Position numbers and translations under genes: made by a program. A model generated the notes under the pieces. The model worked only from the letters and a program-made list of their open reading frames with translations, did no database searches and was not told the DNA's origin. Of a stretch of 44,832 bases of DNA, positions 11,371 to 33,762 are shown one piece after another. The DNA is from a phage. The stretch lies in sequence record PX055572.1; one strand, given 5' to 3'. The stretch's first letter is position 1. Every line of letters begins with the position of its first letter.

Positions 11371-11783
11371 TGGGCTACTTTGAGGACTTAACAAAAGCGT
11401 TTGATGTGCCGCTGGTAGCCTTCGGAACCACCAACGGCATCAAGGTAGCGCTTGAAAACATCGACGCGCCGACGTCAACAGATACGCCGTATCTGGCAAG
11501 TTACATGTTGCTGGCGGATACCGAGCAGGCTGACTTATTCTTCACGGAACAACGCGCCGGTGTCTATCAGATAGACATTAACTACGCATCGGTGAAAGGT
11601 AGCGCGCCAATCAATAAAATGGCAGACTTACTTAACACGGCGTTTAAATCAGGTAAGTCATTTTCACGTAACGACATCTGCGCCGAGGTTCAATCGGTTA
11701 GCCTGGGGCCGCTGATTGTAGAAAACGGATGGGCCAAAAGACCATTGTCAATTAACTTTATTGCATTCACCAAGAGGCTGTGA
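11367..11783 (+). CDS. Tail terminator / completion protein
   Basis: 138-aa ORF immediately upstream of major tail protein; position only. Confidence 0.35.
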   Translation: MMGYFEDLTKAFDVPLVAFGTTNGIKVALENIDAPTSTDTPYLASYMLLADTEQADLFFTEQRAGVYQIDINYASVKGSAPINKMADLLNTAFKSGKSFSRNDICAEVQSVSLGPLIVENGWAKRPLSINFIAFTKRL

Positions 11784-11785
11784 AT

Positions 11786-12952
11786 ATGGCTACAACTCCT
11801 TTTAAGGGCGCGAATACCGCGCAATTCTATGTGGCGGAAACTACCCCGGGCGTAACACCGGCTAACCCGGTATGGTCGCCACTGCGTAACACAGGCGGCG
11901 TTCCTGCCATTACCCGTGACACGCTGACCTCCAACGAACTGGACGGCAGCCGCGAAACTACATCCATCCGCACCGGTAACAAGCAGGTTAGCGGTGAATA
12001 TGCTATTGAGCTTAGCTCGAAAAGCCAGGATGACTGGCTAGCCGGGGCTTTAGGCTCTACGTGGCAGGCTGGCGTATCTCTGTCAGGGCTATCGATTACC
12101 GTCGCACCGGCTGGCAAGACGTTCACACGTGCCACCGGCAGCTTTATCACTGACGGAGTTGGGGTAGGCGACCTGATTGCGTTTACCGATTTAACTGGCG
12201 ATAATGCAAAACCATTTATTGTTACTGCAGTAACGGCTACGGTTGTTACTGGTGCAGGCATCCAACACACCCTGACCACCGAGACAAAAACTAGTAAGGC
12301 TAAAACTGGCGACACGCTGGAAACCGGTAATACGTGTAAGACGTTCTCTATCCTTACCTGGTACAAAGGCCAGTGCGGCGGTACTTACGCGTACACGTTA
12401 ACCAAAGGCGTGGAAGTTTCTGGTTTTACCATCGAACAGGCTGTTAACGCGATGGTAACTGGCAGCTTCCCATTCATCGGTCGCAGTCAGGAGATTCTCA
12501 CCACGCCGCCGAGGGGTTCCAACTTCTCATCTGTTACTTTTGGTGATGAGCCGTTTTCTTCGGTTGACGTTTCCGTGTTCGATGGTTCTACGCCGTTGCG
12601 ATGCGACAGTCTGACTATCACCAACGATAACAGCGCGTCCGCGCAGTTCGAACTTGGTAACACTAACGTAGCGTTTGTTGAGCGTAGCCGCGCGGCTAAC
12701 ACTTTCTCCATCTCCGGCAAGCTGTACGACATGGCGATGATTCAGAAGTTTATCAACGAACAGCAGGTAGAGATTAACTCTATTCTGGCGGGGGTAAACG
12801 GGGCTATGTCTTTCAGTTTGAAACGCGCAGAGCTTACAGCAGTAACACCAGAGATTAGCGGACCAGAGTCAATCACTCAGTCCATTGAGGGGCAGGCCAC
12901 CGGCAACCAGTACCAGTCGTCTATCGTAATTCAACGTATCACCTACGCATAA
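11786..12952 (+). CDS. Major tail protein
   Basis: ATG 11786 with SD AAGAGG 8 nt upstream (ORF track starts at GTG 11780); 389 aa Thr/Gly/Ser-rich beta-type protein; followed by strong bidirectional terminator. Confidence 0.55.
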   Translation: MATTPFKGANTAQFYVAETTPGVTPANPVWSPLRNTGGVPAITRDTLTSNELDGSRETTSIRTGNKQVSGEYAIELSSKSQDDWLAGALGSTWQAGVSLSGLSITVAPAGKTFTRATGSFITDGVGVGDLIAFTDLTGDNAKPFIVTAVTATVVTGAGIQHTLTTETKTSKAKTGDTLETGNTCKTFSILTWYKGQCGGTYAYTLTKGVEVSGFTIEQAVNAMVTGSFPFIGRSQEILTTPPRGSNFSSVTFGDEPFSSVDVSVFDGSTPLRCDSLTITNDNSASAQFELGNTNVAFVERSRAANTFSISGKLYDMAMIQKFINEQQVEINSILAGVNGAMSFSLKRAELTAVTPEISGPESITQSIEGQATGNQYQSSIVIQRITYA

Positions 12953-12954
12953 AA

Positions 12955-12982
12955 CTAAGGCCCCTTTCGGGGCCTTTTTCTT
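12955..12982. terminator. Bidirectional terminator between major tail gene and reverse cassette
   Basis: AGGCCCC-tttc-GGGGCCT then TTTTCTT; A-rich on the other side. Confidence 0.65.
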
Positions 12983-13535
12983 ACAAACCTAATTTTAAAG
13001 CAATGTCTATAACGTTCGATTTAACGTCACCCGGTATGATGTAGGTGTCGTAATCTTTTACACCACTAACATCATACAGATAGCCACGGCTATCGCCGAT
13101 GAACGTATAGCCGTCACGATGGAGGCGAACGATTTGCACGTCATGCCCTGCGGCGACGATAGGGGCAACTTCACTGGCGAATCCACCGTCGGACACTACA
13201 AAAACTTCGTCGCCGTCAGGCAAGTTTTCAGCAAGATACTTACCGAAATAATCATCGCCGAATACCGGTTTAATGAATTGCTCAGAAATGGCAATCATTA
13301 ACTGGCGGCGGGACAACCCATTAAGAAAACCCTCGGGTTTTTCTTTCCGCGCCCGGTCGTCGTAGCCGTCGAGAAATTCGTGGTAAGCATCCTGGCCTAA
13401 CGCTGCCAAAGCAATATTGAACATTGGATTCTTGAAACTGGTAGTTCCTTTCGCAAAGCCCATTTCTACCAGCGCCATAGCAAGCGTGTCTTTCCCGCAA
13501 CCCGCAGGGCCATTAAGAATAATTACCTTAGCCAC
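12981..13535 (-). CDS. P-loop nucleotide kinase (dNMP kinase / polynucleotide kinase-like)
   Basis: Walker A GPAGCGKDT at N-terminus; 184 aa; adjacent to HAD phosphatase in reverse-strand cassette. Confidence 0.6.
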   Translation of the reverse strand: MAKVIILNGPAGCGKDTLAMALVEMGFAKGTTSFKNPMFNIALAALGQDAYHEFLDGYDDRARKEKPEGFLNGLSRRQLMIAISEQFIKPVFGDDYFGKYLAENLPDGDEVFVVSDGGFASEVAPIVAAGHDVQIVRLHRDGYTFIGDSRGYLYDVSGVKDYDTYIIPGDVKSNVIDIALKLGL

Positions 13536-14023
13536 TATTTATCGCTCCCGTGTGGTTTTAAGTGTGTAGAGTTCCCGTTACAGTCGTATTCGGTAACTGC
13601 GTGTGCGGTTATGCCGAGGTCACGGAAATGCTTTATTACCGCTGGAGAGTCGTCGAACGCACACAAGATTCTTTCCAGTCCGAAAGCACGCAACACCTCT
13701 TCTTTAATTACGATGTCTTTTCTGTTGTCGTGTTTGCTGCGCATGATTAGCGTGTCAAACCTAACGTTATTCTCTCGTAACCATTCGCGAGTCTCCTCCT
13801 CAGCGTCATCACTTCGCCCGGTAAGGATAATTATAGTAAGTCCGGAATGCCACAGTACGCTACACAAATGGATATTGTCGTATATCGGAGCGTCATCTTT
13901 GCAGGCCATGTTAAATGGCTTCCACGCCCACGTTTCTCCGTAGTTATCTTTTGGTAACAGGTGTAAGCGATGGGTACCGTCGGCCAATGTCCCGTCTAAA
14001 TCGAAAATTACAATATCTTTCAT
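13535..14023 (-). CDS. HAD-superfamily phosphatase (nucleotidase / 3'-phosphatase-like)
   Basis: N-terminal catalytic motif DLDGTL (DxDxT), 162 aa; translationally coupled to kinase gene. Confidence 0.6.
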   Translation of the reverse strand: MKDIVIFDLDGTLADGTHRLHLLPKDNYGETWAWKPFNMACKDDAPIYDNIHLCSVLWHSGLTIIILTGRSDDAEEETREWLRENNVRFDTLIMRSKHDNRKDIVIKEEVLRAFGLERILCAFDDSPAVIKHFRDLGITAHAVTEYDCNGNSTHLKPHGSDK

Positions 14024-15150
14024 CCCAGCATCTCCGGTGAAATAGTTAAACGTGCGACCTCGCCATATTCGGCGCTATAAGTAATTACATTTGCACTGCG
14101 GCCCGACATCCATCCGCCGCGAGAGGCGTAGGCGTCTTTAGCCGCTAAGGTGCGGTGTTGCTCAACAATCATGTTACGGCTTTCTACAATCTTCTGGTGG
14201 TGCAGATGGCCTACGTGGGCGTAGCTGTAAACACTCTCGCCGAACGCTTTACGGAACTTGGCAATCATAACCGGTTCGATAGCGTCGAATCGTGCTTTAT
14301 GCCCGTGATGGAAGAACAGCGTCGTTTTGCCGTGTCGCACCATCTTGTAAACATCCGGCGACGTATCGACGAATACACGAGGCTCGTTGTCGTACAGTGT
14401 GCTGAACATCTCCGCCAGCCAAATCATCCCGGATTCGTCGTGGTTCCCCTGAACTATAAGCAAGCGAACAGTTTTATGCTTAACCAGAGCCATATCAACA
14501 ACACGGCGGACCATGCGAATCATGTAGCGGACAAGTTTCTGGTAACGCGTGTCGGCGTCAAGGACATGACCACTAGCCGGTGTAACGGCGTCAAGACTAT
14601 CGAAGTGAGCTAAGTCGCCAAGAAGATTAATAACCCCCGTACCTGCATCCGGTGCTTTCTGAAACGCAGCATCAAACCAACGAGAGAATAAGTCCTCCGC
14701 GATTTTCATATCCCAGTCGTCGCCGCTCTCGTCAGCCCAGGCTAACATACCGAGATGGAAATCAGATACCGTGTAAAGATTGAGTAGTTTATCGTCACGT
14801 TTGGCTCGTGCCGGTTTAACAGGCGCAACGGGCGTAATCTCTGACTTCATGCCCTCTATTACGGCTTTCATCAATTCAACCTGACGTTCGGCATCAGCGT
14901 CGGTCTTAACCCATTGCAACTTAGTGTTGCCGAACTCGTCCACCAGGGACGACGTTCCTTTAATCTTGTAACCGTCTGGTACAAGGTGACTAACGTCGCG
15001 CCCGTGGCCTACGCCTTTCTTAGCCAGCTTCGCTTTACGGATACGAATAACGCGGTCTGAGATTCCGTATTTACGGGCGATATCGATATTCTTCATCCCG
15101 GCGTTCAATTCTTCCTGCAACTGTTCGTCGGTTATTTTCTTCTGGGCCAT
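14020..15150 (-). CDS. Calcineurin-like metallophosphoesterase with N-terminal HTH domain
   Basis: Motifs DFH, GDLAHFD, GNHDE, HHGH, GHLHH; N-terminal 60 aa HTH-like (IDIARKYGISDRVIRIRKAK); start ATG 15150 with SD GAGGAA 7 nt upstream (ORF track extends further 5'). Confidence 0.65.
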   Translation of the reverse strand: MAQKKITDEQLQEELNAGMKNIDIARKYGISDRVIRIRKAKLAKKGVGHGRDVSHLVPDGYKIKGTSSLVDEFGNTKLQWVKTDADAERQVELMKAVIEGMKSEITPVAPVKPARAKRDDKLLNLYTVSDFHLGMLAWADESGDDWDMKIAEDLFSRWFDAAFQKAPDAGTGVINLLGDLAHFDSLDAVTPASGHVLDADTRYQKLVRYMIRMVRRVVDMALVKHKTVRLLIVQGNHDESGMIWLAEMFSTLYDNEPRVFVDTSPDVYKMVRHGKTTLFFHHGHKARFDAIEPVMIAKFRKAFGESVYSYAHVGHLHHQKIVESRNMIVEQHRTLAAKDAYASRGGWMSGRSANVITYSAEYGEVARLTISPEMLG

Positions 15151-15188
15151 GCTTACTTCCTCGTGTTTAGGATTTGTCTTATGGTAGC

Positions 15189-15380
15189 CTACTTCTCTTT
15201 CACGTTCGAGTTGCAAGCCCAGATTAAAATGAATACCCACGGCAACAGAATCCACCCGAGAAATAAGTTAGCCATGAATATCGCCAGCTTTGCTTTATGG
15301 TTACGCATATGTGCCACCAAAAACGGGATAAAATAAACGGCTACAAAAATAATTAAGAAGAACATAGTGATACCGGTCAT
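15189..15380 (-). CDS. Small two-TM membrane protein, superinfection-immunity (Imm)-like
   Basis: MTGITMFFLIIFVAVYFIPFLVAHMRNHKAKLAIFMANLFLGWILLPWVFILIWA; start at internal ATG with SD AGGAG 7 nt upstream; LLGW...WxxxLxWA pattern resembles superinfection-immunity family (from memory). Confidence 0.45.
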   Translation of the reverse strand: MTGITMFFLIIFVAVYFIPFLVAHMRNHKAKLAIFMANLFLGWILLPWVFILIWACNSNVKEK

Positions 15381-15422
15381 AACATAACTCCTGATTTGAG
15401 ATAACATCGTTGGTGTAAGTGA

Positions 15423-15451
15423 ATAGTACGCTATTATATTGGGGAGTGCAA
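15423..15451 (-). promoter_or_regulatory. Promoter H: TTGCAC-N17-TACTAT with AATAG-N4-CTATT palindrome
   Basis: As transcribed: TTGCAC TCCCCAATATAATAGCG TACTAT; ~40 nt upstream of Imm-like gene. Confidence 0.55.
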
Positions 15452-15558
15452 GTAGTGTGCTAGAATAATTTTGCGCCTAGTGTCGCACACGAAAAGCGGG
15501 TGGTTCCCGTCTGGCGCATTTCCTTTAACCAGTAACCTCTTAACCAAAGGATTAAAGA

Positions 15559-15975
15559 ATGAAACTTTCTGATTTTTATTACGAAGCGGAAGCCGAAAAG
15601 GGCGCACGTATGCCGATACCGCTAAAAGACGGTACTGATTCCGGGGAATGGCTTAATGTTGTTTCTCCTGAGGCGGACGTTGCCGTTAAGGCTATGCGCG
15701 CGTTCACCCTTGCATACCGGGCAGTATTAGGGAAATTAAAACCGCTTCGTGATAAGTGCGAAGAGATGAAAGATTTCTCTGAATACAACCTGAAGATGGA
15801 AGACGCGGCGACGGACCTTAACCGTCAGTTAGCGATTGAATTGGTTAACGGGTGGAGCCTTGACGACGAATTCAATAAAGAGAATCTGAACACACTCCTG
15901 ACGCAATATAAACGACTCGCGGAACTTGTTGTTGTGTTTCATAACGAACAACTGCACCAGCTACAGGAAAAGTAG
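15559..15975 (+). CDS. Tail assembly chaperone (G-like)
   Basis: 138-aa acidic ORF immediately upstream of tape measure; a -1 frame ORF opens at 15945 before its stop. Confidence 0.5.
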   Translation: MKLSDFYYEAEAEKGARMPIPLKDGTDSGEWLNVVSPEADVAVKAMRAFTLAYRAVLGKLKPLRDKCEEMKDFSEYNLKMEDAATDLNRQLAIELVNGWSLDDEFNKENLNTLLTQYKRLAELVVVFHNEQLHQLQEK

Positions 15976-16340
15976 ACGCGTTGCTCCAGTTCGCCCGTTG
16001 GAACTTCATAACCCGCCACAAACGGCGGGAATTTGACAGTATCGCCGATGGGCATAAAGCCGCGCTAATTGCTATGGGGGTTATGCAAGACGCGCCGGAT
16101 GCAACGCAGGCCGCTGGGCCGGAATGCCCCCCTGAGCTACTAACCACATTTGAGAAGTACAGGGAAATTAAATTCACCCGCCGAGTGGACGACGACGGCA
16201 TCAAGATGTACCCGCGCGAGCAATTACGATGGTCAGATTTAGTGGCGTACAGCACCGTTTCAGGCCAGAATATAGGGATGTTCGAATCCGACATCATCAT
16301 GAGCTTAGACGCTATTTTCGAGGGTAGAAACGATGGCTGA
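15945..16340 (+). CDS. Tail assembly chaperone extension (GT-like, candidate -1 frameshift product)
   Basis: -1 frame relative to 15559..15975 is open from 15945 to 16340; no ATG; near-slippery GGAAAAG at 15966-15972; alternatively TTG start 15981. Confidence 0.35.
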   Translation, partial: RTTAPATGKVDALLQFARWNFITRHKRREFDSIADGHKAALIAMGVMQDAPDATQAAGPECPPELLTTFEKYREIKFTRRVDDDGIKMYPREQLRWSDLVAYSTVSGQNIGMFESDIIMSLDAIFEGRNDG

Positions 16341-18672
16341 TGTAGCTAGTTTAGTAGTAAAAGTAACAGAGCAAGGCGCGAAAGCCACATCAGACCGTCT
16401 TGACAACCTTTCAAAGTCCGCAAAAGTAGCGGGGGCCGCCGTAGCAGGCCTTGCTTCTATCGTAGCGGCTACCGCGTATAAAGCTGCCCAAGAACTGGTT
16501 GACTCACAGCGGCAACTGGACAAGATGTCCGCCAGTTTGAAGACCTTAACAGGAAGTACCCAAGGTGCTAAACAGGCGCTAAGTATCCTGCAAGATTTTG
16601 CCCGCGATACCCCATACGGACTGGAGCAGGCGGTGGAAGGCTTCCGTAAGCTGGTGGCCCTTGGCCTTACCCCATCCGAGGAGGCGTTGCGGTCCTACGG
16701 CAATACCGCATCGGCTATGGGCAAGGACCTTAATCAGATGATTGAGGCGGTAGCCGACGCCAGTACGTTTGAGTTCGAACGCCTAAAAGAATTCGGCATC
16801 AAAGCCAAGCAGAACAAAAACGACGTAGAGTTTACATTCCAGGGGACAACAACCGTAGTTAAGAAAAGCGCTGCCGATATTGAGCAGTATTTACTTAATA
16901 TTGGTAACGTAAATTTTGCCGGTGCCATGGCGGACCAGGCCAACACCCTTAATGGCGCTATCGCGAGCGCCAGTGACTCATGGTCGCAGCTAAAAATGAC
17001 GCTTGCCACCAGTCTTGATGTTGGCGCACTTGCGGAACCTATCAGGTATATCGATGACTTGATCCAGGAATTAAACGCGTCTGTTGCTTCCGGTGAATTA
17101 GCCGCTGAAATGCTGATGTGGGGCGACATAGCGTCGGAAGTAGGAAGCGCTATCGAGATGTCATTCGACGCTGCGTTTGGCTTTGTTGGTGACGCCATCA
17201 ACGGGCTTAATGAACTGTGGGATTTCAGCAGCAAGAGTATTACCGATAGCGGAGAACAAACGGCCACCACCATCGCTGAATCCGCCGCCGATGGTCTTGA
17301 CTTCATCGCGGAAGAGTTCACCGCGATGGAGAGATTCTTTGAAGATATGGTTAAAGGTGCTCAGGACGCTGGCCGTCTTGTACGCGCCGCTTTTACCCCC
17401 GGGGAATCAGTAGACGTAGCTAAAAATATCAACTTCCAGCTTGGCATGGCTTTGGATACCCAGCGCGATGTCGCCGACGTTACGCGTAAAAGTTTCCGCG
17501 AACAGGTAGAAGCTCAACAGGATATTGTAGCGTTAAAACGCGCGGCGTATGACATCGATAAGGAGTCCGCAAAAGCTGAGGGGTTAAACAAATTTAAGGT
17601 AACCGGAACCGGCGGCGGTTCTGACGATGACGGGTCAGCCGCAAAAGCCGCTAAGAAAGCAGTGGACGCGTTCGAGCGCCAGAAAAAGGCGGCGGAAGAC
17701 TTCTACTATCAGTCAATCCATCTTAATGATGACGTATTTCAGAAAATAGAAGCTAACCAGGAAGAGCAACTGTCTAAGTTGCAGGATTTTTATAGCAATA
17801 AGCTTCTTAGCGACCAACAGTACGAAAACGCCAAGACGCAGATTATGCTCTCTGCCGAACAGGCCCGCCAGGAAGAACTGGACAAGAAAAGGAAAGAAGC
17901 CCAGGAGAAGCAGCAGAAAGGTGATGATTTCATGGCTCAGATTATGGGCCAGAACGCCACCGAGCTTGAGCTTCTGGATATTCAGGAACAGCAGAAACTG
18001 GCGGTAGCCGATAAGTACCGGGAACAAGGTCTGATTAGCGAGAAGCAGTATCAGGCCGCGCTTAACGCCATCAACGAGCAGTACGCAACCAAGCGTGCCG
18101 ACGCAACGGCAACAGCTTTCGGTAACATGGCCTCAAACATCGGGTCTGCGTTGGGCGAGGCTTCTGGTGCGTACAAGGCATTCGCTATCGTACAGGCCAC
18201 TATAGCCACGTACACCGCAGCTATCGAGGCGTACAAGTCAACGGCTGCTATCCCTGTTGTTGGCCCGTTCCTGGCCCCTGTAGCCGCTGCCGCTGCCGTC
18301 GGGGCAGGTATGGCGCAGATTTCCGCTATCAGGTCAGCACGTGAACAGGGTGGACAGTTATCCGCCGGGCAGGCTTCCACCATCGCTGAACGCGGTAAAC
18401 CCGAAGTTATCATGCCCGCTGGCGCATCGCGTGTGCGCACCGCGCAGCAGATGAAAGAAATTATGGGGCAAAACGGGTCTTCTTCCGGCCCATCTAATGT
18501 TACCATTGTAAATAATACATCGAGTCAGATTGGCAACGTATCCACCGAGCAGGATGATGAAGGCCGTCTGCGTATCATCATAGAAGAGCAAGTTGCTGCA
18601 TCTTTGCAGAACAGCAACAGTAAGATTAGCAAGGCCCGCAAGGCCACAAGAAACGCGCCGGGGTTTAAATAA
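16333..18672 (+). CDS. Tail tape measure protein
   Basis: 779 aa, Ala/Gln/Glu-rich coiled-coil with C-terminal hydrophobic segments; position after chaperones. Confidence 0.8.
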   Translation: MADVASLVVKVTEQGAKATSDRLDNLSKSAKVAGAAVAGLASIVAATAYKAAQELVDSQRQLDKMSASLKTLTGSTQGAKQALSILQDFARDTPYGLEQAVEGFRKLVALGLTPSEEALRSYGNTASAMGKDLNQMIEAVADASTFEFERLKEFGIKAKQNKNDVEFTFQGTTTVVKKSAADIEQYLLNIGNVNFAGAMADQANTLNGAIASASDSWSQLKMTLATSLDVGALAEPIRYIDDLIQELNASVASGELAAEMLMWGDIASEVGSAIEMSFDAAFGFVGDAINGLNELWDFSSKSITDSGEQTATTIAESAADGLDFIAEEFTAMERFFEDMVKGAQDAGRLVRAAFTPGESVDVAKNINFQLGMALDTQRDVADVTRKSFREQVEAQQDIVALKRAAYDIDKESAKAEGLNKFKVTGTGGGSDDDGSAAKAAKKAVDAFERQKKAAEDFYYQSIHLNDDVFQKIEANQEEQLSKLQDFYSNKLLSDQQYENAKTQIMLSAEQARQEELDKKRKEAQEKQQKGDDFMAQIMGQNATELELLDIQEQQKLAVADKYREQGLISEKQYQAALNAINEQYATKRADATATAFGNMASNIGSALGEASGAYKAFAIVQATIATYTAAIEAYKSTAAIPVVGPFLAPVAAAAAVGAGMAQISAIRSAREQGGQLSAGQASTIAERGKPEVIMPAGASRVRTAQQMKEIMGQNGSSSGPSNVTIVNNTSSQIGNVSTEQDDEGRLRIIIEEQVAASLQNSNSKISKARKATRNAPGFK

Positions 18673-31795: not shown

Positions 31796-32419
31796 TTAAC
31801 GGCGGCGACGTTCGCGACGCGGTGCGTCTTCTTCGTCGTCTTCCAGGTCCTCGACGCTTGCAGCTACTTTAGAACCACCGAACGCTTTACCTTCGCCTAC
31901 GTATTTAATCGCCAGCAGGTTAACGCCGAGGACTTTGTATTTCTGGCTGAACCAGATTTCAACGCTTACGTTAGCTAAGCATCCGCTGTAAACCTGTTCA
32001 CCTTCAATCTGTTCGCCGTCTACGTTGAAGTCCTGCTCTACCTGAGTCTCACCTTTTTTAGAGGTTACAATCAGCGGCTGTTTCTGTGCCTTCGCTTTGA
32101 AGTAGAAGCCTTCCGGGAAGTCTTCAAACGGATTGTCGCGCTCGGCAATGTCTTTAATCGCGCATTTATCCATGTGCTTACCTTCACCGTAGTTGGACTT
32201 CATCCATTTCTCGGCAGCGGCTGCGCCTAACGCTTCTTCAACTACAGCGTAAACGGTGTCGTAGAGTGCATCGATTTGAGCATGGTCAGACGGCAGGATG
32301 ATAGTCGCGCTGTACTGGCCTTTAGTGATTGAGCCATCATCGTTTTCACGGTCTTTTTCACGTTCAAATACGTTAACCCATGCAGTGTTTACTTTACGCA
32401 GATTCAGTTTAATACCCAT
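31796..32419 (-). CDS. Single-stranded DNA-binding protein-like (acidic C-terminal tail)
   Basis: 207 aa with strongly acidic C-terminus SVEDLEDDEEDA followed by RRERRRR; position beside polymerase and exonuclease; downstream of promoter B. Confidence 0.45.
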   Translation of the reverse strand: MGIKLNLRKVNTAWVNVFEREKDRENDDGSITKGQYSATIILPSDHAQIDALYDTVYAVVEEALGAAAAEKWMKSNYGEGKHMDKCAIKDIAERDNPFEDFPEGFYFKAKAQKQPLIVTSKKGETQVEQDFNVDGEQIEGEQVYSGCLANVSVEIWFSQKYKVLGVNLLAIKYVGEGKAFGGSKVAASVEDLEDDEEDAPRRERRRR

Positions 32420-32520: not shown

Positions 32521-33762
32521 TTATTCCAAATCTTCTTCACTAACCTGATTCCACTCAGGCCGTTTGTCGTCTGCCGTTGTGACGCATGGGGCACCTGGCT
32601 TACGTGTGATGAAGTCTTTCAGTTCTTCTTCCGGTATCACTTTAACAGCTTCGGCTGGCGTCATGAGCACTTCTTTAGTCAGCTTGTCGCCGTAGAGTTC
32701 TGTTACTTTCTCCGCGTCTTTCCACGCACGATTGCCCATCTTACCTTCAACCAGCTTGTACCCAGGAACTTTCTTACCAGAATGCAATGCGGCGGCCATC
32801 GCTTTCTCAACCTTGTCGATGTGCTGCCGCAACAACGGCAACTTCTCATACTCAACTACGAGTTGCTCCGGCGTCAGTTCTAGCACAAAGTCGTCTTCAA
32901 GTCCTTCCGCCAGTACAGAGTTAACGGTTTTTGTACGCGCGGCGCACTGTTCTGAGAACCGGCACCACTGGCAACCATCGACCGACGGCCTGAAGTCCGA
33001 CGCTTTCAGGTTCTTCTTACCGCGGAAATATGCATCTAACGCTAACAGGGCACGTTTCTGTGCGAACTTAGCGAACAGCTCCAGACCTTCGACCGAGATG
33101 TCCCACTCTGACGCACCTCCCGCGTACGGCTGGAAGATGACCAGGCGCACTACCGTGATGTTATAACGTCTCTTGAGTCGGCGATAAACACCGAGAGCGT
33201 AAAGCATAAGCTGCTTGTTCTCTTTCGCTTCGACACGATGCCGTCCTGTTTTAAGGTCGCCGATAATAAGCATGTGCTCGTCGGTGTTGGCCTGTTCCTG
33301 CACGGCAACAAGGTCGGCCGTTCCGAACGTCTCAACACCTTCATACCCCGGATGCAATACCTCAGTAAGATTGACACGCATTTCCAGCTTGGCGTAAGTC
33401 GCTACATCGATAACAGCTTTGCAGTAGTCGGTGTACTTGCGCACCTGCTCAATCATGTCAGCCGTAATCAGGACAGCGCCTTTCATCGGGCTAATTAGTG
33501 CCTTAATCTGGCCTTTGCCTTCATCCAGCACGTAAGCACCGACTTCACGTTCTAACGGCAACGCAGTGCCTTTGATGTACTGGTTTAGGTGCATCTCAGC
33601 TATTGTGTGCATTGCCGTACCTAATACGGCGGCTTTACCGGACGTGTTAGGGATATCTTTTTCACAGGCCAGTGATGCGGCACAGCTTAGCCACTTTTTA
33701 GCGCCAGACGGTGATAGTAAAGCGTGTACGTCGTTATTACCGCCGCGTTCTTTTAGAATCAT
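32521..33762 (-). CDS. PD-(D/E)xK exonuclease with C-terminal Cys cluster (Cas4/RecB-like)
   Basis: 413 aa; IIGDLKTG...MLYALG core and C-terminal CQWCRFSEQC cluster; ends in EEDLE. Confidence 0.55.
   Translation of the reverse strand: MILKERGGNNDVHALLSPSGAKKWLSCAASLACEKDIPNTSGKAAVLGTAMHTIAEMHLNQYIKGTALPLEREVGAYVLDEGKGQIKALISPMKGAVLITADMIEQVRKYTDYCKAVIDVATYAKLEMRVNLTEVLHPGYEGVETFGTADLVAVQEQANTDEHMLIIGDLKTGRHRVEAKENKQLMLYALGVYRRLKRRYNITVVRLVIFQPYAGGASEWDISVEGLELFAKFAQKRALLALDAYFRGKKNLKASDFRPSVDGCQWCRFSEQCAARTKTVNSVLAEGLEDDFVLELTPEQLVVEYEKLPLLRQHIDKVEKAMAAALHSGKKVPGYKLVEGKMGNRAWKDAEKVTELYGDKLTKEVLMTPAEAVKVIPEEELKDFITRKPGAPCVTTADDKRPEWNQVSEEDLE

Follow-up and report, generated by a model that had tools for sequence, protein, structure and literature searches.

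Three-gene sets coding for a metallophosphoesterase (MPE), a HAD phosphatase and a kinase have been published for phages of the Drexlerviridae. [quoted passage not shown] In bacteria, a calcineurin-like phosphoesterase is combined with a HAD phosphatase acting on deoxynucleotides in the systems PUA-Cal-HAD and DS-9. PUA-Cal-HAD, which is triggered by m6-dAMP and restricts a Tunavirinae phage, converts dNTPs to dNDPs and these to dNMPs.

The window analysed here is the whole stretch of 44,832 nucleotides of record PX055572.1, a Kagunavirus coliphage with 99.6% identity to phage phiEc4. Four minus-strand genes separate its major tail gene from the tail chaperones. The first codes for an Imm-like protein, and the other three belong to the same families as the AAS23 and PWKp14 genes, in the same order and with the same strand arrangement. 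The context differs: the trio of AAS23 and PWKp14 is located in the early/replication-lysis region, not on the reverse strand within the tail module, and it has no Imm gene upstream. PUA-Cal-HAD and DS-9 differ in being host-encoded systems with a PUA sensor, an MPE of the Calcineurin-CE clade and a C1-cap HAD that deplete dNTPs. The phage set, in contrast, adds a kinase predicted to work in the opposite direction and has no sequence match to them (PADLOC).

The sequence-only reading of the window had proposed these genes as an uncharacterised system. This candidate is not upheld, because the families are known, the genes were annotated before and the trio is already in print. The phiEc4 record names all four reverse-strand genes, as do near-identical GenBank genomes, so that in the sense of annotation the genes are not uncharacterised. 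Our search for functional work on them in Kagunavirus, Jerseyvirus, Tunavirus and Drexlerviridae returned only genome-annotation papers, and the searchable literature yielded neither enzymatic nor genetic results on any of these proteins.

Layout and signals of the leftward operon

All four open reading frames were confirmed between the tail genes, as had been read from the sequence, and the families named there (P-loop kinase, HAD, calcineurin-type MPE with an HTH, Imm) proved right, with their motifs present. Its plus-strand neighbours are the major tail gene (11780-12952) on one side and, on the other, the tail chaperone genes (15559-16340), followed by the tape measure gene (16333-18672). 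The first gene of the operon, Imm (15189-15380), codes for 63 aa from an ATG at 15380 with an AGGAG 7 nt upstream; its open frame reaches 15407. After a gap of 38 nt follows the MPE gene, whose open reading frame covers 14020-15255. Translation probably begins with the ATG at 15150 (gene 14020-15150, 376 aa), since this codon is preceded by GAGGAAG, most database gene calls for the MPE have 376 aa, and the PHROG match starts at residue 38 of the long frame. The start of the HAD gene (13535-14023, 162 aa, motif FDLDGTL) overlaps the MPE stop in the sequence ATGA, and the kinase gene (12981-13535, 184 aa, motif NGPAGCGKDT) begins with a GTG that has one base in common with the HAD stop (TAGTG).

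Between the convergent major tail and kinase genes, a strong hairpin at 12957-12976 (8-bp stem with 6 G-C pairs, 4-nt loop) was called as an intrinsic terminator on both strands, in line with the bidirectional terminator of the sequence-only reading. Its folding energies are -19.9 and -15.4 kcal/mol, with z-scores against shuffled sequences of -4.3 (minus strand) and -3.9 (plus strand); of the two strands, the plus strand has the better U-tract. A candidate sigma-70 promoter of the operon is located at 15423-15451 on the minus strand (TTGCAC-N17-TACTAT), at the position proposed before. With only 7 of 12 consensus matches it is weak, and the consensus scan passed it over. Kagunavirus and Jerseyvirus share both hexamers and their distance of 17 nt although the sequence of the spacer has diverged, which makes activity as a sigma-70-like promoter plausible, if unproven. 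A conserved element upstream of the promoter was considered as a further terminator and rejected, as its folding was not significant.

Modular exchange and gene pairing

The HAD and kinase genes form a discrete, swappable indel cassette of 1.03 kb (12985-14019, minus strand). In blastn comparisons with three relatives (L019, L026 and L027), homology stops at 14013-14023 and resumes at 12984, so the breakpoints coincide with the MPE stop and the terminator. The interval contains a 77-aa ORF in these relatives and, in L026, also an HNH gene. Phages with an MPE of 93-98% identity lack the two genes or have others in their place. At the other end of the operon, Imm is replaced in five close relatives; an unrelated 108-aa protein with a signal-peptide-like N-terminus occupies its position in some. 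The same slot in Jerseyvirus holds Imm, MPE, HNH, a small ORF and Ant. The HTH-MPE is thus the constant core gene of the slot, whereas the Imm position and the HAD and kinase genes are swappable. We conclude that the four genes are a mosaic accessory operon and not a fixed unit or a new repair system; the slot shows clearly how modules are exchanged slot by slot in a tail operon, with exact breakpoints.

The HTH-MPE is very widespread, occurring in about 2,050 phage records (about 4% of those sequenced), and the family comprises 4,648 clusters at 50% identity. It usually stands alone: in about 50 of the 80 loci sampled there was neither HAD nor kinase, and the same holds for T1, Dhillonvirus and one examined Vibrio phage. 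The role of the MPE therefore need not be salvage. Together with the optional HAD and kinase and the swappable Imm, the mostly solitary MPE also removes the basis for treating the four genes as one system, as had been suggested.

Seen from the kinase, the picture is one of tighter association. A HAD gene followed by a kinase gene on the same strand was present at 68 of 79 kinase-centred viral loci (86%), and the full order MPE, HAD, kinase at 34 of them, including clades outside Kagunavirus such as Webervirus. These counts, like the locus count for the MPE, describe samples of 80 loci and not all phage genomes. The pairing of HAD and kinase is spread over Drexlerviridae, including T1, and Guernseyvirinae. 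Its frequency in several phage families suggests that the HAD protein and the kinase may form a two-enzyme step in phage nucleotide metabolism. Some neighbouring genes were considered as further trio members and not counted, as they showed no detectable relation to the proteins of the window: the MPEs that Autographiviridae carry beside homologues of the kinase, the middle gene of Alteromonas phage P24 and the HAD of rV5.

These observations bear on the view that the slot is a recombination hot spot which gathers unrelated accessory genes with nothing but transcription in common. Such a view would agree with the variation at all three positions (Imm or the 108-aa secreted-type protein; HAD and kinase, HNH, small ORF or Ant), with an MPE that is alone in most lineages and with a kinase that stands alone at 10 of the 79 loci. 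However, the order MPE, HAD, kinase recurs in Drexlerviridae (Webervirus PWKp14, AAS23) and at other IMG/VR loci outside Kagunavirus at only 42-55% identity, the HAD-then-kinase order is too frequent to be easily put down to chance, and the start and stop codons overlap. We consider a complete lack of functional coupling unlikely, while giving it more weight than the other alternatives below.

Family relationships of the four proteins

The Imm protein matches Pfam PF14373 (E = 1.8e-13; 50.6 bits, cutoff 27.9) and phrog_1039 (3.1e-24). As in T4 Imm, the protein is small, has two hydrophobic membrane-type segments (read by eye from the sequence as transmembrane) and belongs to the family by a match over the cutoff; it differs from T4 Imm in its length of 63 aa, and its role in exclusion is putative.

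The MPE consists of an HTH (residues 8-44), a beta-hairpin (61-85), a helix (87-102) and the MPE domain (119-376). A first homologue search yielded only proteins with at least 97% identity, and it was a search of a representative library that provided diversity. The five metal-binding motifs (DxH, GD, GNH(D/E), H, GHxH) are all present. Residues D130, H132, G178, D179, N236, H237, H282, G314 and H317 are invariant among 61 homologues of 30-50% identity, and H315 is kept in at least 90% of them. Pfam scores are under the gathering cutoffs, and the calcineurin-like fold was confirmed by a structure model and its comparison. The fold is nearest to nuclease-type enzymes, namely the PolD DP1 exonuclease (5IHE), Mre11 (3QG5) and SbcD (7DOG, 6S6V), and not to phosphatase-type ones, with an identity of only 13-18%. 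Unlike these nucleases, the phage protein bears an HTH and a beta-hairpin at its N-terminus; the HTH, of a sigma-70-region-4/LuxR-like type, is present across the family. The model ends with the MPE domain, without the capping domain of Mre11 and SbcD, and no Rad50/SbcC or DP2 partner is annotated in the phage genome. By these two marks, the capping domain and the ATPase partner, the protein does not fall in with the Mre11/SbcD nucleases. A second MPE (SbcD), as stated for phage Golestan, was looked for in the genome and rejected: the exonuclease of the replication module is a DUF2800/PD-(D/E)XK enzyme.

The HAD protein matches Pfam PF25109 (HAD_PNKP, 3.3e-20) and phrog_415 (3e-64), and in the PDB Capnocytophaga Pnkp1 (4XRP, 4e-6) and T4 Pnkp (PseT; 5UJ0, 1LTQ), with whose 3'-phosphatase domains it is homologous. 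In the alignment with T4-type PseT, the motifs DxDGT, (S/T)GR, DxRKDxxxKEE and DD are invariant, and so are residues D8, D10, T12, G69, R70, D99, R101, D103, K107, D124 and D125. By these sequence criteria it is a genuine 3'-phosphatase domain of the T4 Pnkp type, here as a stand-alone protein of 162 aa, whereas T4 Pnkp has it joined to a kinase.

The kinase belongs to a different family than the kinase domain of Pnkp. Profile and fold comparisons relate it over its full length, including the GKD P-loop GCGKDT, to the dNMP kinase gp1 of T4 (1DEK), and place it in that family. It is shorter than T4 gp1 (184 against 241 aa), lacks the T4 insertion and belongs to phrog_139, a diverged subfamily whose genes usually come as a pair with a Pnkp-type HAD gene; its activity is predicted. 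The link to 1DEK came from a profile of phage homologues; a PDB search with the single sequence gave nothing beyond P-loop noise. With Pnkp kinase, in contrast, the alignment is limited to 26 columns around the P-loop, and no 5'-OH polynucleotide kinase domain homologous to that of Pnkp was detected in the phage protein. Genes near other members of the family give indirect support to a dNMP kinase activity: one homologue is fused to a dUTPase, the homologue of rV5 adjoins thymidylate synthase (ThyA) and another HAD, and those of Chaseviridae adjoin a ligase and a dUTPase.

It had been proposed that kinase, phosphatase and MPE are the domain set of Pnkp split into separate proteins. The HAD and kinase proteins would then be a two-subunit polynucleotide kinase-phosphatase and the MPE a cyclic phosphodiesterase or nuclease, repairing the ends that host defence nucleases leave in tRNA or DNA, with a host ligase sealing them. 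The HAD protein, with all essential motifs of the Pnkp-phosphatase family, fits this well, and a 3'-phosphatase that is translationally coupled to a kinase, in the same order at most loci, would follow the logic of such an enzyme. The kinase does not fit, as described above. Moreover, HAD and kinase are not in one polypeptide, and no fusion of the two was seen among the best 120 kinase homologues, in which the dUTPase fusion does exist. The MPE is also of the wrong type: bacterial Pnkp (Clostridium thermocellum type, with Hen1) has a lambda-phosphatase-like MPE fused to kinase and ligase-like domains. No tRNA genes were found in the genome, and the annotation of the near-identical genome PQ436005 lists neither an RNA nor a DNA ligase (with part of the ORFs independently scanned), which agrees with the earlier remark that no ligase is nearby. 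Finally, near-identical phages dispense with the HAD and kinase genes. With only the HAD protein related to Pnkp, no ligase and no tRNA genes, this proposal is mostly unsupported, and we regard it as improbable.

Proposed role of the operon

The evidence fits best with dNMP salvage, which the sequence-only reading had offered as its second suggestion. We favour, at about even chances, a leftward accessory mosaic operon in a conserved tail-module slot of the Guernseyvirinae that serves early nucleotide salvage from DNA breakdown and superinfection exclusion. Host RNA polymerase would probably transcribe it, and we assume early expression. The first position is that of a surface or membrane exclusion factor, in this genome a T4-Imm-like membrane protein with two segments that would block DNA entry by superinfecting phage. 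The second is occupied by an HTH-tethered MPE, similar to Mre11, SbcD and PolD DP1 and most likely a DNA-bound phosphodiesterase or exonuclease, and the third by the optional block of a Pnkp-type 3'-phosphatase and a T4 gp1-type dNMP kinase.

The analysis establishes the families, the complete catalytic motifs, the build of the operon, its modular gains and losses and the recurrent order of HAD and kinase. We infer which substrates the enzymes use, when they are expressed and that the three work in one pathway, which would run as follows. The HAD enzyme would remove 3'-phosphates from DNA ends or 3'-nucleotides, the nuclease-like MPE would release 5'-dNMPs, and the kinase would convert these dNMPs to dNDPs for phage DNA synthesis. 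It counts against salvage that the closest characterised relatives of the HAD protein work on polynucleotide 3' ends in RNA repair.

A bolder version of this model is conceivable, but we think it improbable as well. Here the HTH-MPE would be a new phage DNA-targeting class, perhaps initiating the breakdown of the host chromosome, and together with HAD and kinase it would form a three-step line that cleans the end, digests, and re-phosphorylates the products. Free dNMP alarm signals such as m6-dAMP would be kept low, which would blunt nucleotide-sensing defences.

Least probable of all is counter-defence by nucleotide chemistry, in which alarm or signal nucleotides (cyclic ones, or dNMPs such as m6-dAMP that arise when host DNA is broken down) are destroyed or converted, or dNTP pools attacked by depleting systems of the host are rebuilt. 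In its favour, host systems do use an MPE and a HAD on nucleotides (PUA-Cal-HAD; DS-9 in DefensePredictor pairs the same types), and a dNMP kinase would take dNMPs away and replenish the pools. Against it, PADLOC gave no match below E 0.04 for any of the four proteins, an HTH suggests DNA and not a small molecule as the target, the fold of the MPE is closest to that of nucleases, and the literature searched held no experiment or escape-mutant study tying the genes to defence.

The HTH-MPE family is very large and worth studying biochemically, for example in T1 or other model phages. One of its members, AAS23 gp38, has once been reported from a virion proteome.

Anatomy and annotation of the cassette

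Four minus-strand genes lie inside the plus-strand tail operon, flanked on the plus strand by the major tail gene and by two tail chaperone ORFs and the tape measure gene. All four ORFs named in the sequence-only reading are present. The kinase (12981-13535, 184 aa, GTG start, P-loop GPAGCGKDT) follows the HAD phosphatase (13535-14023, 162 aa, motif FDLDGTL). The metallophosphoesterase with an N-terminal helix-turn-helix (HTH-MPE) almost certainly starts at the ATG at 15150 (376 aa), because GAGGAAG precedes this codon, 376 aa is the commonest database call and the longer ORF, which reaches a GTG at 15255, aligns to its PHROG only from residue 38 onwards. For the superinfection-immunity-like protein Imm (63 aa), the most likely start is the ATG at 15380, preceded by AGGAG. 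Imm has an above-cutoff match to PF14373, a match to phrog_1039 and two hydrophobic membrane-type segments as read by eye, in line with the two-TM protein expected. The Imm-MPE gap is 38 nt; the MPE stop and HAD start overlap as ATGA, and the HAD stop and kinase start have one base in common. The three enzyme genes are thus translationally coupled.

A terminator scan called a hairpin at 12957-12976 on both strands, far stabler than shuffled sequence (z -4.3 and -3.9), which bears out a bidirectional terminator as the boundary of the cassette. The proposed promoter of its own, TTGCAC-N17-TACTAT (15451-15423, minus strand), has only 7/12 consensus matches and is absent from the promoter scan calls. 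In the Kagunavirus and Jerseyvirus intergenic alignment, however, TTGCA, TAYTAT and the 17-nt spacing are kept while the spacer diverges, which gives reasonable support for a real promoter. Between it and the divergent tail-chaperone gene lies the element GCCAGRCGGGAACCACCCGCTTTTC (about 15492-15516, minus strand), invariant in both genera. A small hairpin within it does not fold significantly (z 0.43). The element might serve as an operator or belong to a promoter from which transcription of the plus-strand tail genes resumes past the cassette.

Escherichia phages vB_EcoS-phiEc4 and vB_Eco_K-02 share 99.6% identity with the region 12900-15600, which matched 327 phage records, most of them from Kagunavirus and Jerseyvirus (subfamily Guernseyvirinae). 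These records label the genes as superinfection immunity protein (Imm), metallophosphoesterase or "DNA repair exonuclease" (MPE), polynucleotide kinase or acid phosphatase (HAD) and deoxynucleoside monophosphate kinase (kinase), and the AAS23 genome paper places the trio (gp38-40) among the enzymes of nucleotide metabolism (PMC8004638). As a candidate for an uncharacterised system the cassette therefore does not hold up. The feature is real but of an ordinary sort: an accessory operon, mosaic in make-up, whose gene families are known, which existing records annotate and which has been described in part. What still merits attention is the HTH-MPE family, itself uncharacterised, and the conserved pairing of a Pnkp-type HAD with a dNMP kinase.

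The HTH-metallophosphoesterase family

At an E of 1e-3 or better, the HTH-MPE family comprises 4,648 clusters at 50% identity, nearly all of about 380-400 aa. Matches occur in 2,053 of 50,697 phage records, including T1 and other Drexlerviridae, Dhillonvirus, and Vibrio, Alteromonas and Rhizobium phages. The protein is predicted to be an active enzyme, since, across 61 sequences of 30-50% identity, the metal ligands in its five MPE motifs show little or no variation. Its AF2 model (pLDDT 92.3) has four parts: a three-helix HTH (residues 8-44), a long beta-hairpin (61-85), a helix (87-102) and the MPE domain (119-376). Family members match Sigma70_r4_2, GerE, Fis and other HTH models; the calcineurin-type MPE with N-terminal HTH was correctly read. 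Its matches among viral models include many phage proteins that are themselves uncharacterised and are named "calcineurin-like phosphoesterase" or "DNA polymerase II small subunit".

Its proposed place in a Pnkp set is not supported, as bacterial Pnkp carries a lambda-phosphatase-like MPE of another type. Mre11/SbcD is defined by a capping domain and a Rad50/SbcC partner, whereas the AF2 model and the genome annotation show neither for HTH-MPE. The replication-module "exonuclease" (32521-33762, minus strand) is a DUF2800/PD-(D/E)XK nuclease adjacent to an Enc34-type ssDNA-binding protein (31796-32419, minus strand); in the published description of the Golestan genome, an ORF of the corresponding module is named SbcD.

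We found no functional studies of the family in the literature searched. Packaging in virions is a possibility, because the trio phosphoesterase of Pantoea phage AAS23, gp38, was seen by LC-MS/MS in purified virions (PMC8004638).

The phosphatase and the kinase

The HAD protein matches HAD_PNKP (PF25109, 3.3e-20) and phrog_415; its PDB hits are Pnkp1 (4XRP) and, from T4 Pnkp, the phosphatase domain (5UJ0, 1LTQ). Alignment with a T4-type PseT shows no change in motif I (DxDGT), motif II ((S/T)GR), motif IV (DD) or the DxRKDxxxKEE segment. These signatures place it squarely within the family of Pnkp 3'-phosphatase domains, as had been proposed.

The kinase was likewise read as a Pnkp domain, and here the evidence points elsewhere. 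As a single sequence it gives only P-loop matches (Pfam, PDB). A profile of 11 phage homologues matches T4 dNMP kinase gp1 (1DEK) over its whole length (E 4e-8) with no Pnkp among its PDB matches, and only 26 columns, the P-loop, align with full-length PseT. Homologues adjoin thymidylate synthase and another HAD in rV5, ligase and dUTPase in Chaseviridae and an exonuclease in Kuravirus; one (P0386, 382 aa, from a 39 kb metagenomic contig) carries a C-terminal dUTPase domain (PF00692, 6e-17). On these grounds we assign the kinase to the gp1 dNMP-kinase family, not to the polynucleotide-kinase family.

Modularity and proposed function

Among 80 MPE-centred IMG/VR loci, the MPE is followed by HAD and kinase in 11, by HAD alone in 3 and by neither in about 50. 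Three loci (L019, L026, L027) have an MPE 93-98% identical to that of the window, yet no HAD or kinase. Blastn homology to them ends at 14013-14023 (the MPE stop) and restarts at 12984 beside the terminator; the interval holds a 77-aa ORF and, in L026, also an HNH gene. HAD and kinase thus form a discrete, replaceable 1.03-kb block. The Imm position varies too: five close Kagunavirus relatives (L103, L104, L107, L109, L110) encode a 108-aa protein there (about 1494-1823 of these loci, window 15189-15407, upstream of HTH-MPE) with a signal-peptide-like N-terminus, MRKLVLALGFMSFAAFG..., which may be another exclusion factor. The same slot in Jerseyvirus holds Imm, MPE, an HNH endonuclease, a small ORF and Ant. 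In T1, Dhillonvirus and one Vibrio phage, the MPE occurs without HAD or kinase and adjoins an HNH endonuclease gene or lies just upstream of terminase. These comparative data argue against a single four-gene system.

In 68 of 79 kinase-centred loci (from a sample of 80), HAD lies upstream of the kinase on the same strand, always in that order, although small ORFs or an HNH gene may separate the two, T1 being an example; HAD and kinase are therefore a real, widespread gene pair. The complete order MPE, HAD, kinase occurs in 34 kinase-centred loci, 20 of them outside the Kagunavirus group (e.g. Webervirus), so that the trio is recurrent but non-obligatory.

What the analysis shows, namely protein families, motifs, operon layout and the patterns of comparison, is best accommodated by an accessory operon read by host RNA polymerase, for which we infer substrates, timing and pathway coupling. 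Imm would provide superinfection exclusion, beside a DNA-bound nuclease-like phosphodiesterase and an optional salvage pair. The HAD 3'-phosphatase would strip 3'-phosphates off DNA ends or 3'-nucleotides, the MPE would release 5'-dNMPs and the gp1-type kinase would make dNDPs. T1 degrades host DNA, and mutants in the 3'-phosphatase of T4 pseT were first described as altering the DNA metabolism of T4. According to a recent preprint, a Tunavirinae phage is restricted by a defence that host-DNA breakdown triggers.

A split Pnkp, with HAD and kinase as end-healing enzymes, is favoured by the family of the HAD protein and by the conserved pairing of phosphatase and kinase, but is weakened by the gp1 family of the kinase, by the lack of an annotated ligase in a near-identical genome and of tRNA genes in our search, and by near-identical phages that dispense with the block. 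Unrelated accessory genes sharing a slot would fit the modularity, but not a gene order that recurs across phage families. Counter-defence by nucleotide chemistry, suggested by host MPE+HAD systems that deplete dNTPs, has no direct support: searching PADLOC models with all four proteins gave no match below E 0.04.

Some observations concern the homologues themselves. Dhillonvirus HTH-MPE (e.g. L035-L044, among L018-L097) is 75% identical and directly precedes the genes for the small and large terminase subunits, as the last gene after the lysis cassette, a setting quite unlike the tail-module slot. HNH endonuclease genes directly follow HTH-MPE in T1, the Vibrio phage and Jerseyvirus (L002, 5207-5689; L004, 5241-5750; L006, 4628-5098; L164 and L167, 3004-3498) and also separate HAD from kinase in T1-like phages, a pattern suggestive of homing endonucleases that have invaded conserved clusters of genes. 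Dozens of "Campylobacter phage" records carry close homologues of the enterobacterial T1-like cassette genes, among them a 47 kb record (A131) whose kinase homologue is 50% identical to that of the window; these host attributions may deserve a check.
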